Positions 4,748-22,586 of a DNA stretch of 39,531 bases are shown piece by piece. Each line of letters starts with the position of its first letter. The first letter of the stretch is position 1. Source of the stretch: a virus (Duplodnaviria > Heunggongvirae > Uroviricota > Caudoviricetes). A program made the translations under genes and the position numbers. The notes beneath the pieces are model-generated. The model was given only the letters and a program-made list of their open reading frames with translations, made no database searches and was not told the origin of the DNA. The stretch lies in the IMG/VR virus record IMGVR_UViG_2548876950_000007; one strand, given 5' to 3'.

Positions 4748-7735
4748 ATGAGCTTAAGCGATCAGGTGGTAATTGCCACCAGCATAGAAACGCTGATCGA
4801 GCTGCTTAAGAACCTGCCCGATTATGGGCGGGTTTCGTATGTGGTGACAGCGAAGGGAGACGAGGTAAAAACAGCGTTTGATATCGTCGATGCCTCAGCT
4901 CTTTTGGTATCCAATACTCTGGATGGGAAAATTAATCCTGACTATCCCCAGGAACTTCAGCCGCGCGACCGGACCCGCGCATCCAGCCTTCTTCAGGTTA
5001 ACCAGATATCCAAAGATTTGCGGCCTGCTCAGCTTACCGATTCCGGTTTATCCAGCCATGGCGCGCCGATAATTGGTGAGGACAATGCCGTTGAGTCAGG
5101 TAATGGACGGACCATGGGAATCATTAAAGCCTATCAGGACGGCAATGCGGATCGGTATCGTGAGTACCTGATTGAACATGCGACCGAATTCGGCATACGA
5201 CCTGAAAAGGTTGAATCAATGACGGCTCCTGTACTGGTGCGCCGCCGGTTAACTAAGGTTGACCGCGTTCAGTTTGCCAAGGACTCAAATATTTCTGATC
5301 TTCAGGAAATGGCAGCCAGTGAAAAGGCTTTTGTTGATGCCGACAGCATAACACCGGCGATGATGGCGCTGTTTAATCCGTCAGAAAGCGGAGATCTGCT
5401 TAGCCGCAGTAATGACGCGTTTATTCGCGGATTCATGACGCAAGTTGGTGCCACACAGGCTGCTGGCCTTGTAACGGAAGATGGGCGACCAACGCGGCAA
5501 CTTGTTGACCGTATACAAAACGCGATCTTTGCCAAGGCATATAAGGATGCGCGCCTGGTAAGGATGGTTGCAGAAGAACCTGATCCGGATATGCGTAATG
5601 TTCTGACGGCGCTTAATGCGGCAGCCAATGATTTTGTCCAGATGCAGGCTTTATCAGGAGAAGCGCACAAGCAGGCTGTGACAACTATTGTTGATGGCAT
5701 TGAGACAGCGGATAGCCTCGATAAAAAGGCGCTGGCGGCATTGAAAGATGCGGTAGACCTGGTAAGGCAATCGAAGGAGTCAGGCCAGCATATTACCGAT
5801 GTTATTGCTCAGGGGGATATGTTCAGCGAAACGGCCCCGGAAGTGAAAGCACTCGCGTTGTTCATCGTCGCGAATAACCGTAGCGCGAAGCGTATGGCCA
5901 CCGCCTTTAAGTTGATGGCGCAACGTATCAATGATGAGTTACAGCACCAGGGCCAGGCGCTCGGGGATATGTTTGGCGGCGGCGATGTGTCGTTACAGGA
6001 TATCCTTCGCCAAGTATCTCAGGAACTGGAAAACGAAGGTATGCAAGGGATATCTGGCGGTCTTTTCGAGTCAGCTTCTGGCGGTAGTTACAACGGTGTT
6101 GCTCCATATACCAGCTTGCTATTACATCGGGCATCCGGCATCAAAGACATTATTCATCTGATCAGGCTGCTTTCCCGTACAGATCCCCAGGATGAACAGC
6201 TTGTTCAAGTGCTTGCGCATTTTGTTCGAATGCCTGTTGCCGACGTGAAAAAATGGTGCCGATTATTCGGTATCAGCAATTCGTTACTTCGCGGCTTGTT
6301 AAATCACGCATCCTCCCTTGGGCGCGATGGCTTTGACGAGATAGCGCAGGCGATAAAAAACGGAGATATGCCACCAGCTATTGACTGGTTTTCCATTCGC
6401 CCAACCAGGGTGAAAGCATTCCTTAGCGCGGCGCATTCGGCATCACCATTGGCAGAAATGGTTCAGAGGTTGTCGCTCATATTCACAGACCATACCGCGT
6501 TGGGTGATCTGACTCTGGACGAGATGAAAGAAGCCTCCATTCAGTGGGCCGATCAACAAAATGAGGTTAACTCTGACTTCTTGCCAGCATTCAGGAAGGC
6601 CGTTAGTAAAGCGGATGATGCCCGTGGAATTCTGAAGGCATTTAAGGCATTGCAAAGTCGGGTTAATAAACATGTCGGTGATATCGATGGGGTAACGGCG
6701 GAAGGCAGGGATATCCTTAAAGAGCACGGCATAACGCCAGAGTTTATTGATGAGATCAGGACGGATATGCAGCGTGAGGTCGTATCGTCCCTGCAAATCG
6801 TAGCCAGAGCGTTGGCGGATGCTAATCCGAAGAGTGCGGCCATTGTTAACCGGGTTATTGGTGATATTGAAGCATCGGAGGGCATGGGGGCGCTGAAACT
6901 CTTCCTTTCGCGAGCGTTTAATCCTAACGGCAATATTCTCCCTGGCATTATTGGTGAGGCTAAAAGGTATGTCAGTGAAGAAGAACTTGAGCAGCTTGAC
7001 CAACTACTTAAGCGATTCTCATATAACCCGCAGACACGCTGGCAAATGAATCAGCGAAGTATGGGTTCGGTCCACGAGAAAGTGTTATCTGCCATGAACA
7101 GTGCGATCGCAAACTCATCCGTATCTGAAGAAAAAGCTCTTGAGTGGGCCGACTCTTTTATCACGGAAGAAGTGGAAGAAGCCCGCGCTGGACAGAATGG
7201 TGGGATAGACCTGCGCAAGGAACTTGCTGATATTTATCGCCTGACCGGCGGTAAAATTTCGACCTTATCAAAGGTGGTTCACCACCAGGGAAGGGCATAT
7301 GCAAATCTTAATGGTGTTGTTGCTGTCAATTTGAACGATGAAAATGCAAGTGCACTGTGGCACGAGCTGGGTCATCATCTTGAGTACAGTAACCCTGGTT
7401 TGTTAGAGAAAGCCCGGTCATTCCTGAAGGCCAATGTTGAAGGGGATAAGCCATCTTTCGTTAATATCGGTGGGCGTGGCAAGCCTGAATGGTGCTTCAG
7501 ATCTCGATTGAGTAATATTTATATGGCGAAGGTATACCCGCCAGCCTTAGTGAGTAATTCCGGGAAAATTCGGCAGAAATCACCGACTATTTCCAAAACG
7601 TCAGCAACGGAAGTATTCTCTATGGCTCTTCAGTTGTATCATGACAAAGAGGCCACTGCCGCATCACTGATGAATGGTGACGGATTGCTGGAACTGTTAT
7701 TAGGTGTGGCAAAGGAGCTAAATAATGCAGATTAA
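4748..7735 (+). CDS. ddrB: DdrB (995 aa), large Dar-operon protein
   Basis: Single 995-aa ORF downstream of ddrA; size and synteny with P1. Confidence 0.6.
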   Translation: MSLSDQVVIATSIETLIELLKNLPDYGRVSYVVTAKGDEVKTAFDIVDASALLVSNTLDGKINPDYPQELQPRDRTRASSLLQVNQISKDLRPAQLTDSGLSSHGAPIIGEDNAVESGNGRTMGIIKAYQDGNADRYREYLIEHATEFGIRPEKVESMTAPVLVRRRLTKVDRVQFAKDSNISDLQEMAASEKAFVDADSITPAMMALFNPSESGDLLSRSNDAFIRGFMTQVGATQAAGLVTEDGRPTRQLVDRIQNAIFAKAYKDARLVRMVAEEPDPDMRNVLTALNAAANDFVQMQALSGEAHKQAVTTIVDGIETADSLDKKALAALKDAVDLVRQSKESGQHITDVIAQGDMFSETAPEVKALALFIVANNRSAKRMATAFKLMAQRINDELQHQGQALGDMFGGGDVSLQDILRQVSQELENEGMQGISGGLFESASGGSYNGVAPYTSLLLHRASGIKDIIHLIRLLSRTDPQDEQLVQVLAHFVRMPVADVKKWCRLFGISNSLLRGLLNHASSLGRDGFDEIAQAIKNGDMPPAIDWFSIRPTRVKAFLSAAHSASPLAEMVQRLSLIFTDHTALGDLTLDEMKEASIQWADQQNEVNSDFLPAFRKAVSKADDARGILKAFKALQSRVNKHVGDIDGVTAEGRDILKEHGITPEFIDEIRTDMQREVVSSLQIVARALADANPKSAAIVNRVIGDIEASEGMGALKLFLSRAFNPNGNILPGIIGEAKRYVSEEELEQLDQLLKRFSYNPQTRWQMNQRSMGSVHEKVLSAMNSAIANSSVSEEKALEWADSFITEEVEEARAGQNGGIDLRKELADIYRLTGGKISTLSKVVHHQGRAYANLNGVVAVNLNDENASALWHELGHHLEYSNPGLLEKARSFLKANVEGDKPSFVNIGGRGKPEWCFRSRLSNIYMAKVYPPALVSNSGKIRQKSPTISKTSATEVFSMALQLYHDKEATAASLMNGDGLLELLLGVAKELNNAD

Positions 7736-8030
7736 AATCGCAGCGCCATTAGGCGGAGATGCCATTATCGAATTTGATGATAATGAAGAAGTTTCCGGGC
7801 GTTTAAGCATTATCTCCGGTAACATTACCGAGGACATGATCGCTGAAGCCATAGCTGGGGCAAATCCCAATAGCTATATGGGATTCGTTAACACCCTTGA
7901 TGCTCCCGCAAGTGATGTTCTCCGAACGCTGCATCTTTACGCTGGCTGGTTTGTTGATTGGCCAGCAGTAGAGGGTGGCGATGAGGACGACGATGATTTC
8001 GGTGACAATATTAATCAGATTATATTTTAA
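7725..8030 (+). CDS. hxr: Hxr-like small acidic protein (101 aa)
   Basis: Overlaps the ddrB stop; size and synteny. Confidence 0.45.
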   Translation: MQIKIAAPLGGDAIIEFDDNEEVSGRLSIISGNITEDMIAEAIAGANPNSYMGFVNTLDAPASDVLRTLHLYAGWFVDWPAVEGGDEDDDDFGDNINQIIF

Positions 8031-8189
8031 CCCATATGAGATATAATCGTTCTAATGGCATAAAGTTAGATTGTTCTTATATTCGACTTTGTGCCATCAT
8101 TAGGACTAATCATTTAGGGGTTCTTTTAGGTAGAAATTTAGCAATACATGTTTAGTATGGCAATATTTTCTAAAGGAGTTAGGTAAAAA

Positions 8190-9068
8190 GTGAAAAGAAT
8201 TATTCCTGATAAAAAATGGTTAAAAGAAGAAAGCAGTAAGCGACAAGTGCCATCAGAATGTCCCTATGCAAATTCATATCGATGTCCTAGATATCACGAA
8301 AGTGTTATTTTGTTCTCACAGATGCAAATGATTGATGGCATGTCATATAATAAAGAGAAGGAGTTGAAACAGTTCTGGGAGAGAACCGACCTCTCTTCTT
8401 TATGTAATGGAGAAACCCCGTTGGTCTCAAAAAATGATAAAGGCGGGATTTTCTCTATAGATAATTTCTGTCCAGAAATATCGTTTAGATATTTAGGTTA
8501 CTATGCAGACTATATGCTGAGATACATTGATGAAGATGCTCACACTATAGGGTATGGCATAGCTAAAAGAGATCAGAAAGAAAATGATTGGAAGTATGAT
8601 TGGTCCGAGGTCAATGCTGTTTTCTATGAGGATTGTTACCTCTTTGAGAGAGTTAAACAATTCAATAAAGAACTTCATGATAGTTTCTTTAAAAGACTAC
8701 ATCCGAATATTGTAATGCAAATAAGTAGAATGGATAAGTGTTTGGACTCAAATGACCCAACCGGTGTTTTGCATGCGGCATCTAATATTCTAGAAACAAT
8801 GGCTAAAGAAATATTAGATGATCCAAATGTATTAAATAAATCGTTTGGCTCTTTTTTTGAGAAGTTTAAAAAAGAGTCAAAGTTGCCGTTAGGGTTTATT
8901 AATGCAGTTAAAGATATTTATGACTTACGTAATAAAATACCTACTGCTGGTCATGGGGGGGTGGGGATGCCTGGGTTATCTTTATCTGATGCCATAATGA
9001 TTGCTGCATCAACAAAGGCTATTGTAGAGATTGAGTACAGAAACATTGATGTGGCTGCTATTGATTGA
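8190..9068 (+). CDS. hypothetical protein (292 aa), AT-rich, at the position of P1 isaA; GTG start
   Basis: About 35% GC against roughly 48-50% for flanking genes; SD AAGGAG at 8173-8178; four N-terminal Cys; C-terminal LRNKIPTAGH motif. Confidence 0.5.
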   Translation: MKRIIPDKKWLKEESSKRQVPSECPYANSYRCPRYHESVILFSQMQMIDGMSYNKEKELKQFWERTDLSSLCNGETPLVSKNDKGGIFSIDNFCPEISFRYLGYYADYMLRYIDEDAHTIGYGIAKRDQKENDWKYDWSEVNAVFYEDCYLFERVKQFNKELHDSFFKRLHPNIVMQISRMDKCLDSNDPTGVLHAASNILETMAKEILDDPNVLNKSFGSFFEKFKKESKLPLGFINAVKDIYDLRNKIPTAGHGGVGMPGLSLSDAIMIAASTKAIVEIEYRNIDVAAID

Positions 9069-9108
9069 GCTAATATAGCGAGGTTCCTTTTTGTATCGTT
9101 CGAATTAT

Positions 9109-9126
9109 CCCCGCCTGTCGGCGGGG
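9109..9126. terminator. bidirectional hairpin between convergent genes
   Basis: ccccgcc-tgtc-ggcgggg, perfect 7-bp GC stem; corresponds to where P1 carries IS1 (from memory). Confidence 0.5.
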
Positions 9127-9132
9127 TATAAC

Positions 9133-9915
9133 TTAATCACTTTCTACCTCTTCCGTTGAGTTTTCCAATGCTGCGCGACACAATTTCCTGGCATTGGTTA
9201 TAGCCACACTTTTTACCTCATCCGTCATTGTGCAGGTAATGTACTGATCGAGTTCTTCAGCTCGGATGATGCTTTTCCCAATCATAAACTCTATTTGCCA
9301 GAGCAGATCGGCATCCATCGTCAGTATTTCAGCCTGGCCTTCTGGGCCTGCGGGGAAGCAAACATAAGACTGTTTGCCCAGGCCGATAACTCGACAACTT
9401 GCTTCAAGAATTGCACGCTTGAGGTCTGACTTTGTAACTGAAACAGGTTGATTTTCACCTGTGATTACGCCGTTGGCATGGACGTGGAAGGGCATGTAGC
9501 TTGAAATTCGCTCTACTTTCCATACGCCAGCAAGCGATCCTTCATGCAGCACAATGGGGGTAACCGCGAGTTTCATCTCACCATATAACTGCTGGCAGAT
9601 AGCTGGATTGCTGAATACATCCAAAGGTTCACACTCAAACAGCGGTGCAATCTGCATGAGGTCCATCATGGTCATACCAGGGGTACGAGCAGTAATGAAT
9701 CTGCGCATTCCAGTATCCATTGTGCGCCAGATAGCTACACCATGCTTTTTGCTCACTTCTTCAGTAAAGCCAAGGTGGCACATGATGGTTTTTTCGATAG
9801 CCAGATCAGAGATAGAAACCTTTTCGCCTGGCACGCCATCATTATTGATGGTCACTTCGACACTCTGGCCATTACGTAGGCGGTATTGAATGGTTTTAGT
9901 ATTTTGTGCTGTCAT
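9133..9915 (-). CDS. hypothetical protein (260 aa), at the position of P1 isaB
   Basis: Intact ORF convergent with the 292-aa gene; backbone-like composition. Confidence 0.45.
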   Translation of the reverse strand: MTAQNTKTIQYRLRNGQSVEVTINNDGVPGEKVSISDLAIEKTIMCHLGFTEEVSKKHGVAIWRTMDTGMRRFITARTPGMTMMDLMQIAPLFECEPLDVFSNPAICQQLYGEMKLAVTPIVLHEGSLAGVWKVERISSYMPFHVHANGVITGENQPVSVTKSDLKRAILEASCRVIGLGKQSYVCFPAGPEGQAEILTMDADLLWQIEFMIGKSIIRAEELDQYITCTMTDEVKSVAITNARKLCRAALENSTEEVESD

Positions 9916-10093
9916 AGTCTTTTCTCTGCTTAAAAACTGATGTATTGCGCCTTCAGGTTGGTTAGGAATGTTTTCCCACCAGCGAAAGCAATATCTCGGG
10001 GTGTTCTATTCGTTAAAATCGCGTGCCATTGCCAACTTTGGCGTTTTTTAGCGAGTTCGTGCTTTTGTTGGCGCCTGGACCACCGCTTTTCTT

Positions 10094-10600
10094 TCAGTCG
10101 TTTTTTACACATTCAAAACGGAATATCGTCGTCAAAGTCCATTGGAGGTTCGTTATTGGCATTGCTCTGAGGTTTACCGCCACCGCTGTATTGCTGGTGG
10201 TTTTGAGGTTGGTTCGATTGCCCCAGCCATTTGAGGACTGCGAATCGTCACGGCGAGTGCCAATCATTTGCATGGTGCCACCCTGGCTGACGATAATTTC
10301 CGTCGTATAACGTTCTACACCGACGTCATCTGTCCACTTACGGGTTTTAAGTTTCCCTTCGATGTAGACCTGAGAACCTTTTCGTAAATACTCACTCGCA
10401 ATTTCAGCAAGTTTTCCGAACAAAACGACTTTATGCCATTCTGTTTGCTCTTTCTGTTGGCCCGTTTGCTTGTCGCGCCATGATTCATTCATTGCGATGC
10501 TGAGTCTTCCGACTGCGCCGCCATTTGGTATATATCTGATCTCCGGGTCTTGTCCCAGGGTACCAATCAGGATGACTTTGTTTACACCGCGTTGTGCCAC
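10094..10600 (-). CDS. ssb: single-stranded DNA-binding protein with an apparent frameshift; the conserved C-terminal tail is out of frame
   Basis: N-terminal OB-fold matches SSB ([13 protein letters not shown]...[16 protein letters not shown]); the [11 protein letters not shown]-stop tail is encoded in another frame ending at 10113; frames would join with one extra C in the C4 run at 10221-10224. Confidence 0.7.
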
Positions 10601-10619
10601 TTATCTTACCTAATAAAAT

Positions 10620-10636
10620 GAATTAATTAGAGCAAT
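10620..10636 (-). promoter_or_regulatory. C1 repressor operator upstream of ssb
   Basis: gaattaattagagcaat matches 15/17 of the asymmetric P1 C1 operator consensus ATTGCTCTAATAAATTT (reverse complement). Confidence 0.6.
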
Positions 10637-10768
10637 AATGTATATCTTTGAAACGTAGCTAACAAGTGATTTTCATTATCCTGTGCCTTCTAAAGGGATC
10701 GAGTCAGTCGGTATTGGCTGTGAATGGGTGTTTGTCCTGGAGCGTAAAAATTTGCTTATGAGGTCTTT

Positions 10769-11326
10769 ATGAAGGGAAAAACAGCCGCAGGAGGCGGTGC
10801 AATTTGCGCTATCGCGGTGATGATTACCATCGTGATGGGTAATGGCAATGTGCGAACCAACCAGGCGGGGCTTGAGCTGATTGGTAACGCTGAAGGTTGC
10901 CGACGTGATCCATACATGTGCCCGGCAGGGGTATGGACTGACGGGATCGGTAATACACACGGGGTAACGCCGGGTGTGCGAAAAACAGACCAGCAAATCG
11001 CCGCTGATTGGGAAAAGAATATCCTGATCGCTGAACGCTGTATTAATCAGCACTTCCGGGGCAAAGACATGCCCGATAATGCCTTCAGTGCAATGACAAG
11101 CGCGGCATTCAATATGGGATGCAATAGCTTACGGACCTACTACAGCAAAGCGCGAGGCATGCGAGTAGAAACGTCCATCCACAAGTGGGCGCAGAAAGGG
11201 GAATGGGTGAATATGTGTAACCATCTCCCTGATTTCGTGAACAGTAACGGCGTGCCCCTGCGAGGTTTAAAGATTCGCCGTGAAAAAGAACGCCAGCTTT
11301 GCCTGACGGGGCTTGTCAATGAATAA
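10769..11326 (+). CDS. lyz: endolysin Lyz (185 aa)
   Basis: N-terminal signal-anchor-like hydrophobic segment followed by a lysozyme domain; matches P1 Lyz in size and sequence. Confidence 0.85.
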   Translation: MKGKTAAGGGAICAIAVMITIVMGNGNVRTNQAGLELIGNAEGCRRDPYMCPAGVWTDGIGNTHGVTPGVRKTDQQIAADWEKNILIAERCINQHFRGKDMPDNAFSAMTSAAFNMGCNSLRTYYSKARGMRVETSIHKWAQKGEWVNMCNHLPDFVNSNGVPLRGLKIRREKERQLCLTGLVNE

Positions 11327-21977: not shown

Positions 21978-22586
21978 TTATCGTGGTGCCGATGATGCGA
22001 TAGCCTGTATGATGTTATCAATATCGTTATCGTTCAGCATGAATATAGGTACACCATTAGAGTTTGCATTTTTTTCAGTGCTCATCAAACAAAGCCCCTC
22101 ATACATGCCGCGAGTTTTTTTGAAATTGGCGACTGATGGAGTGGTGTAATTTCCTTTAAAGTGCATTCCGGCTGATTCATAAAAAGGAACCAAATCAGAC
22201 TGGCAAATCAAAGCGACCTCATTTGGAAATGCAAGTATTTCTGCCAGTATATTACTTCCAAGTCCATTACCACGATATTGCTCATATACATATATTTTAT
22301 GACAGTACAACGGAAAATTTCCCGATGGATGTCCGAAGATTAAGGCGTATCCGAACAAGTTTTCTTCATTAGTAAAGCCCATAATGCGCAAATGACCGGC
22401 TCGGTAACACTCTTCAAAAACGTTAATTATGTAGCTTCTCGCTGCTTTCAGCTCCTCTTCTGTCGGGAACATCATCAACCCCATAAGCGATGGAGTATAG
22501 GCCAGATCCTGAAGAATCCCATTAGCTTCATTTTCGAAAATTAGCGGTAAGTGCGGTACAATTTCATTTGCCGAGGTATTAGACAT
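21978..22586 (-). CDS. GNAT-family N-acetyltransferase (202 aa), AT-rich cargo gene
   Basis: Acetyl-CoA motif A (R-x-x-G-x-G in YRGNGLGSNIL); about 40% GC with a very AT-rich upstream region; occupies the slot where I recall P1 has res-mod. Confidence 0.6.
   Translation of the reverse strand: MSNTSANEIVPHLPLIFENEANGILQDLAYTPSLMGLMMFPTEEELKAARSYIINVFEECYRAGHLRIMGFTNEENLFGYALIFGHPSGNFPLYCHKIYVYEQYRGNGLGSNILAEILAFPNEVALICQSDLVPFYESAGMHFKGNYTTPSVANFKKTRGMYEGLCLMSTEKNANSNGVPIFMLNDNDIDNIIQAIASSAPR

Follow-up and report, generated by a model that had tools for sequence, protein, structure and literature searches.

Single-protein abortive-infection systems that are built around a HEPN domain and carry variable N-terminal domains are known, among them AbiJ, SadR, Taranis, and HepS. 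The AbiJ/Abi_C family (PF14355), which includes SadR of Staphylococcus aureus and Taranis of a Vibrio cholerae integron, consists of single proteins encoded on mobile elements, in which a variable N-terminal domain is followed by a C-terminal HEPN ribonuclease (RNase) domain. In Abi_C proteins the X of the motif R-polar-X-H spans 2-6 residues, 5 being the commonest, and in SadR the R, N, and H are each needed, since their mutation abolishes both RNase activity and defence. HepS, from the Gifsy-1 prophage of Salmonella (PDB 9oik), is a solo HEPN protein that is inactive by default, senses infection, and executes abortive infection, and its carrier phage must avoid triggering it. Esos, a HEPN-like integron cassette of V. 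cholerae N16961, is a validated anti-phage gene that leads to growth arrest or death on infection (Darracq et al.). The gene described here is located in IMG/VR record IMGVR_UViG_2548876950_000007, a stretch of 39,531 nucleotides (hereafter the window) from a P1-like phage-plasmid; megablast of positions 7000-10700 returned P1, P7, SJ46, RCS47, and relatives at 95-98% identity over the flanks only. It is the open reading frame (ORF) at 8190-9068 on the plus strand, between hxr and isaA, which has a GTG start and a TGA stop and encodes a two-module protein of 292 aa. The identical coding sequence is present in RefSeq (WP_029791854.1) under the label 'hypothetical protein'. The probable role proposed for this protein is that of a self-contained, abortive-infection-type defence directed by the phage-plasmid against other phages, in which a Cys4 sensor would be combined with a latent HEPN RNase.

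The 292-aa protein resembles the AbiJ/Abi_C systems in its single-protein design, in having a variable N-terminal domain joined to a predicted C-terminal HEPN RNase domain, and in being carried on a mobile element. Its motif RNKIPTAGH and the RNEYGDAH of SadR are both of the R-polar-X-H form, and its N-terminal module shares with the AbiJ N-terminal domains the occurrence of fusions to TIR and to further effectors. It differs in the spacer, which is 6 residues long whereas that of Abi_C is usually 5, in scoring below the Abi_C gathering cut-off, and in having no sequence link to solved structures. The N-terminal types listed for Abi_C are AbiJ-NTD3, NTD4, NTD5, and Sdh5 (or none); the domain found here is none of these and has four invariant cysteines. 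The best functional analogy is provided by HepS, which is likewise a solo HEPN gene carried as prophage cargo without a partner gene. However, in HepS the HEPN domain stands alone, its motif is a canonical Rx4H (R100-H105), and the protein acts as an anticodon nuclease that a siphovirus tail-tip protein activates, whereas the 292-aa protein has an extra Cys4 domain of 160 residues. Esos is also a single gene, in which only the HEPN-like domain is recognisable, and the V. cholerae homologue of the gene studied here is a superintegron cassette as well. New in the 292-aa protein are the sub-threshold relation to Abi_C, the longer spacer, and an N-terminal domain without a family or fold relative (PDB, BFVD). 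It was set beside Esos by description only, and this comparison is therefore the main uncertainty on its novelty. The cluster of Vibrio homologues is small (29 member sequences on 3 contigs), which speaks against an origin in the pandemic lineage, given how heavily that lineage has been sequenced.

The close family of the protein comprises 29 clusters, all of them 'hypothetical', from Pectobacterium, Serratia, Hafnia, Salmonella, Shewanella, Vibrio, and others. In an exhaustive profile search, which returned 576 representatives, residues 1 to ~160 and residues ~165 to 286 were also found apart from each other; the protein is composed of two independent modules, each of which is shuffled among defence-type partners. 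The full-length AlphaFold2 (AF2) model was mediocre overall, with a predicted local distance difference test (pLDDT) score of 63.6, and good over residues 170-250. Its fold matches were assigned to the C-terminal half because the N-terminal module alone matches nothing. The C-terminal module has the four-helix up-down bundle fold of HEPN domains. A transmembrane segment was considered and rejected: the sole hydrophobic window was seen in homologue P0002 (73% identity; residues 263-281), the protein that was scanned, and corresponds to the last helix of the HEPN core.

Conservation in the C-terminal module was followed in two alignments, one of 25 full-length homologues and one of 34 diverged C-terminal modules located behind unrelated N-termini. 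Both pairs, R247 with H255 and E202 with K206 (ETMAK), were invariant in each alignment. The complete invariant set of the diverged modules consisted of an N, E202, K206, an S, R247, and A-G-H255-G, and N248, the polar residue right after the arginine, was conserved in at least 90% of them. The hallmarks of HEPN domains given by Anantharaman et al. (2013) include a polar residue (N, D or H) after the motif arginine and an E-x3-[KR] motif; both were found in the protein, as N248 and as E202...K206. An earlier note on this DNA had pointed to the sequence LRNKIPTAGH as reminiscent of the HEPN motif of abortive-infection proteins, with a spacing one residue over the classical R-x4-6-H. The sequence occupies residues 246-255 and does place 7 residues between R247 and H255, and the HEPN assignment is supported by the fold, by the conserved Arg/His pair, and by the two further hallmarks. 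The two checks suggested there, on conservation of the Arg/His pair among homologues and on a structural match to an unrelated fold, were both run and left the HEPN reading standing. Read in the Abi_C form as R-N-KIPTAG-H, the motif lies within the C-terminal 120 residues and has an X of 6, the upper end of the Abi_C range. Weak Abi_C matches were obtained with 13 of the 25 close homologues (best E value 4.4e-4) and with 2 of the 34 diverged modules. We conclude that the C-terminal module belongs to the HEPN domains of AbiJ/Abi_C type and represents a distinct subfamily outside the Pfam model; its conserved residues suggest that it may be a latent RNase. In other proteins the module is attached to pentapeptide repeats, to WD40 propellers, or to ATPase regions of the AAA_16 type, a pattern that fits an effector domain.

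The same conservation bears on whether the HEPN domain is catalytic at all. HEPN domains that serve as binding or regulatory modules occur in MtlR and in the nucleotidyltransferase-associated HEPN proteins, and by that analogy the 292-aa protein would be a regulator. This is the least probable of the explanations considered here, since such families characteristically lose the motif, whereas the R, N, H, E, and K of the present one are kept, with few or no exceptions, in strongly diverged sequences whose N-termini are unrelated, in the way that residues of a catalytic site are; in addition, no DNA-binding domain was detected in the protein.

There are six cysteines in the protein (positions 24, 32, 72, 94, 149, and 184). 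The earlier note had described a four-Cys cluster at the N-terminus, and four cysteines of the N-terminal module are indeed invariant, but they are not the first four of the six. In two successive alignments of diverged sequences (54, then 39, with identities as low as 25%), the invariant positions were W10, C24, C32, C94-P95-E96, and C149, and C72 was not among them. Such invariance of four cysteines spread widely over a cytoplasmic domain implies that metal is bound there, and the module thus probably contains a Cys4 metal-binding site. An AF2 model of the module built from the diverged alignment was of high quality (pLDDT 94.5; predicted template modelling score 0.87), and no fold match to it was found in PDB or BFVD. 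Searches of Pfam, PHROGs, PADLOC, NCBIfam, and the PDB sequences with the module were likewise without a match; the Pfam AbiJ_NTD models did not match the protein, and one divergent member of the family matched AbiJ_NTD4.

By profile search, the family of the N-terminal module extends to 636 clusters, all unnamed. The tails of 165 members were classified as HEPN (45), hydrophobic helix (45), other tail (56), nothing (14), and partial copies (5), and the 'other tail' was mostly a conserved amphipathic stretch of ~40 aa reading KPGFMGISLNI..LLTRLAKWWLSK. The module is also joined to TIR_2 or to a CAP12/Pycsar-type TIR (PF10137); those regions match PADLOC TIR models, and outside them PADLOC gave no matches in proteins in which the module is fused to unknown C-termini. 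We read the N-terminal module as a swappable sensor or regulatory domain because one domain is wired to RNase, NADase, and membrane modules. A parallel case is provided by AbiJ-NTD1 to NTD5, N-terminal domains that Anantharaman et al. (2013) reported to be joined to varied effectors. A more far-reaching reading, which is put forward tentatively, is that the module might be an undescribed sensor with a new fold and a Cys4 metal centre (Zn or Fe-S), shared by a broad one-protein immune family of at least 636 clusters in which HEPN RNase, TIR NADase, transmembrane helix, and amphipathic tail would be interchangeable. A domain that has a confident model but no known fold relative and that is reused with four kinds of effector, as the Cys4 domain is, fits a pattern that has more than once led to new immune sensors.

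Several short forms of the family carry no annotation (P0116, P0124, P0181, P0194, P0201, and others). The commonest form is ~200 aa long and consists of the Cys4 domain followed either by the amphipathic tail of ~40 residues (..VE[IV]KPGFMGISLNI[KR]xLLTRLAKWWLSK) or by a single transmembrane helix, which is preceded by WYK[KR]P. The end of a third short form reads G-x-IGF.

The effector repertoire of signalling systems is mirrored in what the N-terminal module is joined to, namely HEPN, TIR (the CAP12/Pycsar-type PF10137 among them), and transmembrane helices. This leaves room for a reading in which the protein is the effector of a diffusible second messenger from a system resembling CBASS, Pycsar, or type III CRISPR, and the N-terminal module binds the ligand in the manner of CARF, SAVED, or cNMP-binding domains. 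Such a role is decidedly unlikely: no cyclase or other conserved neighbour was found in 21 homologue loci, no cyclase is present in the window, no sensor fold of the CARF, SAVED, or cNMP-binding kind was recognised, and copies of the gene travel as single-gene integron cassettes and single-gene morons.

The position of the gene was compared with that in P1 and its relatives. It had been suggested that the locus corresponds to the place where P1 carries IS1, and this is the case: P1 has isaB-IS1-isaA at the corresponding place, so that IsaA, IsaB, and IS1 of P1 occupy the same position between hxr and ssb as the gene studied here, and the slot of the window is without IS1. The fallback offered in the same note, that the gene is a conserved isaA-like gene, proved wrong. 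In BLASTP comparisons the protein gave E values of 1.8 with P1 IsaA (320 aa) and 1.7 with IsaB (201 aa), the isaA orthologue is the neighbour on the minus strand, and the gene is rare. Of 488 plasmid records matching the surrounding backbone, 4 carry it, and it was present in 5 of 5,426 complete E. coli genomes, every time on a plasmid of ~95-102 kb. In other members of the group the slot is empty (L011) or has different occupants, namely a 364-aa gene without a family match in L001 and L009 (L009:966-2060, minus strand; called 'terminase large subunit' in MH422554), a 434-aa HipA-family kinase YjjJ with an N-terminal helix-turn-helix and HipA_C in L010 (966-2270, minus strand), a 95-aa gene in L012 (1150-1437, minus strand), and isaB plus IS1 in P1 itself. 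Borders of the insertion-sequence type were sought and rejected, as no meaningful flanking repeats were found.

Composition also sets the gene apart from its surroundings. Its GC content is 35.4% (31.2% at third codon positions), whereas the window as a whole has 48.3% and the four genes around it have 45-50%, and the lowest GC content among all 879-bp segments of the window lies at the gene (minimum 0.332 at 8001; mean 0.483, standard deviation 0.039). The atypical composition reported earlier for a 292-aa gene of about 35% GC is thus borne out. The gene is horizontally acquired accessory cargo in a variable hxr-isaA slot of the P1 backbone, and the slot has the behaviour of a hotspot for cargo or defence genes.

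This location invites the question of whether the gene serves P1 itself, in its life cycle or in counter-defence, for example as an RNase that breaks down RNAs of the host or of competitors while P1 grows lytically. The gene directly follows ddrB-hxr on the same strand, and readthrough into it is possible since the terminator hairpin of the slot stands 3' of it; moreover, the neighbouring Dar/Ddr genes of P1 have anti-restriction functions. A role of this kind is nonetheless very unlikely. Nearly all P1-like elements are without the gene, tblastn of the protein against 50,697 phage records gave no match, homologues are located in chromosomal integrons and islands without a phage, and an AT-rich leader of the gene's own arrived with the cargo.

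The homologues are found on several kinds of mobile element. Copies in P2-like prophages lie between the replication protein gene gpA (phrog_91) and the portal gene gpQ (phrog_68), a cos-proximal hotspot that in P2 is the home of old and tin and that has been shown to be a reservoir of anti-phage systems. A Salmonella prophage copy occupies a tail-fibre moron slot and follows a DUF4145 (HEPN) gene and a gene for a GT4-conflict glycosyltransferase (L005:7181-7879 and 5706-6848, both plus strand). Copies in Pectobacterium and Shewanella lie in integrase-bounded islands, and the V. cholerae copy (L040:5001-5861) is a single-gene superintegron cassette between V. cholerae repeat (VCR) attC sites. 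Attachment-site-like (attC-like) ends were also found on copies from Shewanella, Methylophaga, Moraxellaceae, Desulfobulbaceae, and Burkholderiales (L023-L027, around 6001-6864), in which the stop codon lies inside TAACAAA, a GTTAGAT core is located upstream, and a common leader reads GTTAGATTTTCAA(A/T)GGAG. Integron cassettes are single-gene units, of which a sizeable fraction is anti-phage. From the integron, P2-hotspot, and P1-plasmid copies it follows that the same gene moves among these elements. No neighbouring gene family was common to the 21 homologue loci, the recurrent neighbours being the P2 core genes gpA, portal, and terminase; a conserved partner gene was therefore ruled out, and the family consists of solo genes.

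Two further accessory arrangements were seen beside homologues. In the P2 gpA-gpQ hotspot, a pair of genes encoding a 549-aa ABC-ATPase-like protein (phrog_8066) and a 287-aa HNH endonuclease-like protein adjoins the homologue (L014:8201-9850 and 9852-10715, both plus strand; also in L018) and looks like a two-gene defence candidate. The Salmonella homologue, with the DUF4145 and GT4-conflict genes, forms a small accessory cluster near the tail-fibre assembly genes.

HEPN domains are common as toxins of toxin-antitoxin systems, such systems are abundant as cassettes in integron arrays, and a HipA-family kinase toxin can occupy the same P1 slot. The protein could accordingly be imagined as a stress or addiction toxin, a HEPN RNase checked in cis and freed by a metal or redox change (loss of Zn or Fe-S) or by plasmid loss, which would stabilise the P1 plasmid or induce dormancy; the four invariant cysteines suggest a metal site able to answer to the redox state. 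No antitoxin partner was found, however. MNT-HEPN systems of type VII have an adjacent nucleotidyltransferase (MNT) antitoxin, whereas the neighbours here are hxr and isaA and none is conserved across the 21 loci. A type III system of the AbiF/AbiQ/AbiV type was rejected, there being no ToxI-like repeat RNA: positions 7900-9300 contained no tandem repeats (score of at least 30), and Rfam gave three sub-threshold matches in that interval, none of them credible. The regulator of the protein appears to be fused in cis, unlike those of MNT-HEPN and of the AbiV/AbiF type III systems, and a cis-inhibited protein has no obvious way of sensing plasmid loss. In addition, the partners of the N-terminal module (TIR, transmembrane helices, HEPN) are a typical set of immune effectors, and homologues are located in phage defence hotspots. 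A toxin role is for these reasons considered unlikely.

The rival explanations fit the contexts of the homologues less well than abortive infection does. In the mechanism that we infer, which involves metal binding, autoinhibition, RNase activity, a trigger of some particular nature, and a defence phenotype, the predicted metal-binding four-Cys domain would hold the HEPN RNase off in the lysogen and would sense a cue from infection by another phage. A composite active site would then arise from two HEPN domains and cleave RNA of the cell (tRNA, rRNA, or mRNA), so that translation would halt and the infecting phage would be aborted, to the benefit of the clonal population and of the resident P1 prophage.

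Several observations weigh against an abortive-infection role. The gap of 7 residues between R247 and H255 lies beyond the classical Rx4-6H, and residues 253-259, the loop that carries H255, have pLDDT values below 50 in the full-length model. The Abi_C model scored 13.9 bits with the full protein and 16 bits with the C-terminal domain alone, below its cut-off of 24 bits. No meaningful match was returned by PADLOC 2.0 (2023), PHROGs, or NCBIfam 2026, and none above cut-off by Pfam; phmmer and profile searches of PDB with the whole protein and with each module gave chance matches only (synaptobrevin, NodB). The occurrence of homologues in hotspots is only guilt by association, and IS1 as well as genes without a known role are found in the P1 slot too. 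Three IMG/VR prophage copies (L016, L017, and L021, at 6001-6867) are split into two ORFs (6001-6345 and 6415-6867) and are probably pseudogenes, so that the gene is dispensable there. Finally, promoter-like sites in the leader were not above chance (2 found against 5.1 expected).

If the abortive-infection reading is correct, the hxr-isaA junction of P1-like phage-plasmids would have to be counted among the sites at which temperate elements gather defence genes and other cargo, and the slot could be mined for further systems, starting from the 364-aa gene, the HipA-family kinase, and the 95-aa gene; P1-like plasmids are very common in Enterobacteriaceae, as the 488 records with the same backbone illustrate. 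The trigger of the Cys4 domain would extend the short list of phage cues, and, on the reading of the module as a new sensor, the P1 gene would be the first handle in E. coli genetics on what the Cys4 sensor detects. As with HepS, the question would arise of self-immunity, that is, how an abortive system borne by a prophage spares its own carrier on induction. As a small gene from an E. coli element, it lends itself to simple tests.

The coordinates of the neighbouring genes, modules, and motifs are given in Table 1. The GTG start of the cargo gene is preceded by AGGAG at 8174-8178, and it is supported by the homologue alignments because these begin at residue 1 (MKRIIPDKKW).

Table 1. Coordinates of genes, protein modules, and conserved motifs at the hxr-isaA slot of the window.
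Feature	Position	Strand	Remarks
ddrB	4748-7735	+	neighbour
hxr	7725-8030	+	101 aa; left edge of variable slot; backbone homology stops at 8005-8030
N-terminal module, residues 1-160	8190-8669	+	alpha/beta domain; putative sensor/regulatory domain, predicted metal-binding
Invariant cysteine codons C24, C32, C94, C149	8259-8261, 8283-8285, 8469-8471, 8634-8636	+	
C-terminal module, residues 166-292	8685-9065	+	HEPN-fold domain, Abi_C/AbiJ type; putative RNase effector
E202-T-M-A-K206 (E-x3-K motif)	8793-8807	+	invariant in both C-terminal alignments
R247-N248-K-I-P-T-A-G-H255	8928-8954	+	putative catalytic R-polar-x6-H; from conservation and comparison with SadR
isaA orthologue	9133-9915	-	260 aa; 96% identical to P1 IsaA residues 57-320; right edge of slot; backbone homology resumes at 9126-9167
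ssb	10094-10600	-	neighbour
lyz	10769-11326	+	neighbour

The AT-rich intergenic region of 160 bp noticed earlier upstream of the gene corresponds to the spacer at 8031-8189 (159 bp, 30.8% GC), which is a 5' leader or promoter region that came in with the cargo. It contains one weak sigma-70-like site (8055-8083), and the 165-nt leader RNA folds with -39.3 kcal/mol (z = -3.4 against shuffled sequences). The leader sequence is not conserved 5' of the homologues, and for this reason no function was attached to its folding. Right behind the hxr stop codon, the leader holds a long imperfect inverted repeat (8049-8106, plus strand; AATGGCATAAAGT...ACTTTGTGCCATCATT), which could be the ddrB-hxr terminator, an operator, or an element of the 5' untranslated region.

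On the downstream side, a GC-rich bidirectional terminator had been proposed. The GC-rich hairpin is real (CCCCGCC-TGTC-GGCGGGG at 9107-9124, between the convergent stop codons), but neither strand has a U-run and the site was not called in the terminator scan, so that the proposal is supported only in part. Plasmids with an empty slot have a sister hairpin at the same place, reading CCCGCCAATCGGCGGG and then T9. Because its position and sequence correspond to those of that hairpin, the hairpin at 9107-9124 is best described as the hxr/isaA terminator hairpin of the backbone, here without the U-tract, and not as part of the cargo. In pAPEC201602 (L032, NZ_CP127299.1), an IS3-family element is inserted just 3' of the stop codon of the cargo gene and 5' of the hairpin, with duplication of the sequence at 9081-9084.

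A second cargo gene of low GC content (~37%) was found elsewhere in the window, at 21978-22586 on the minus strand. It encodes a GNAT N-acetyltransferase of 202 aa, which matches PDB chain 9s30_A over all 202 residues (E value 8.7e-137), and its slot, another variable one between lxc/ulx and mat, holds a RelA/SpoT-family gene in other P1-like phages.

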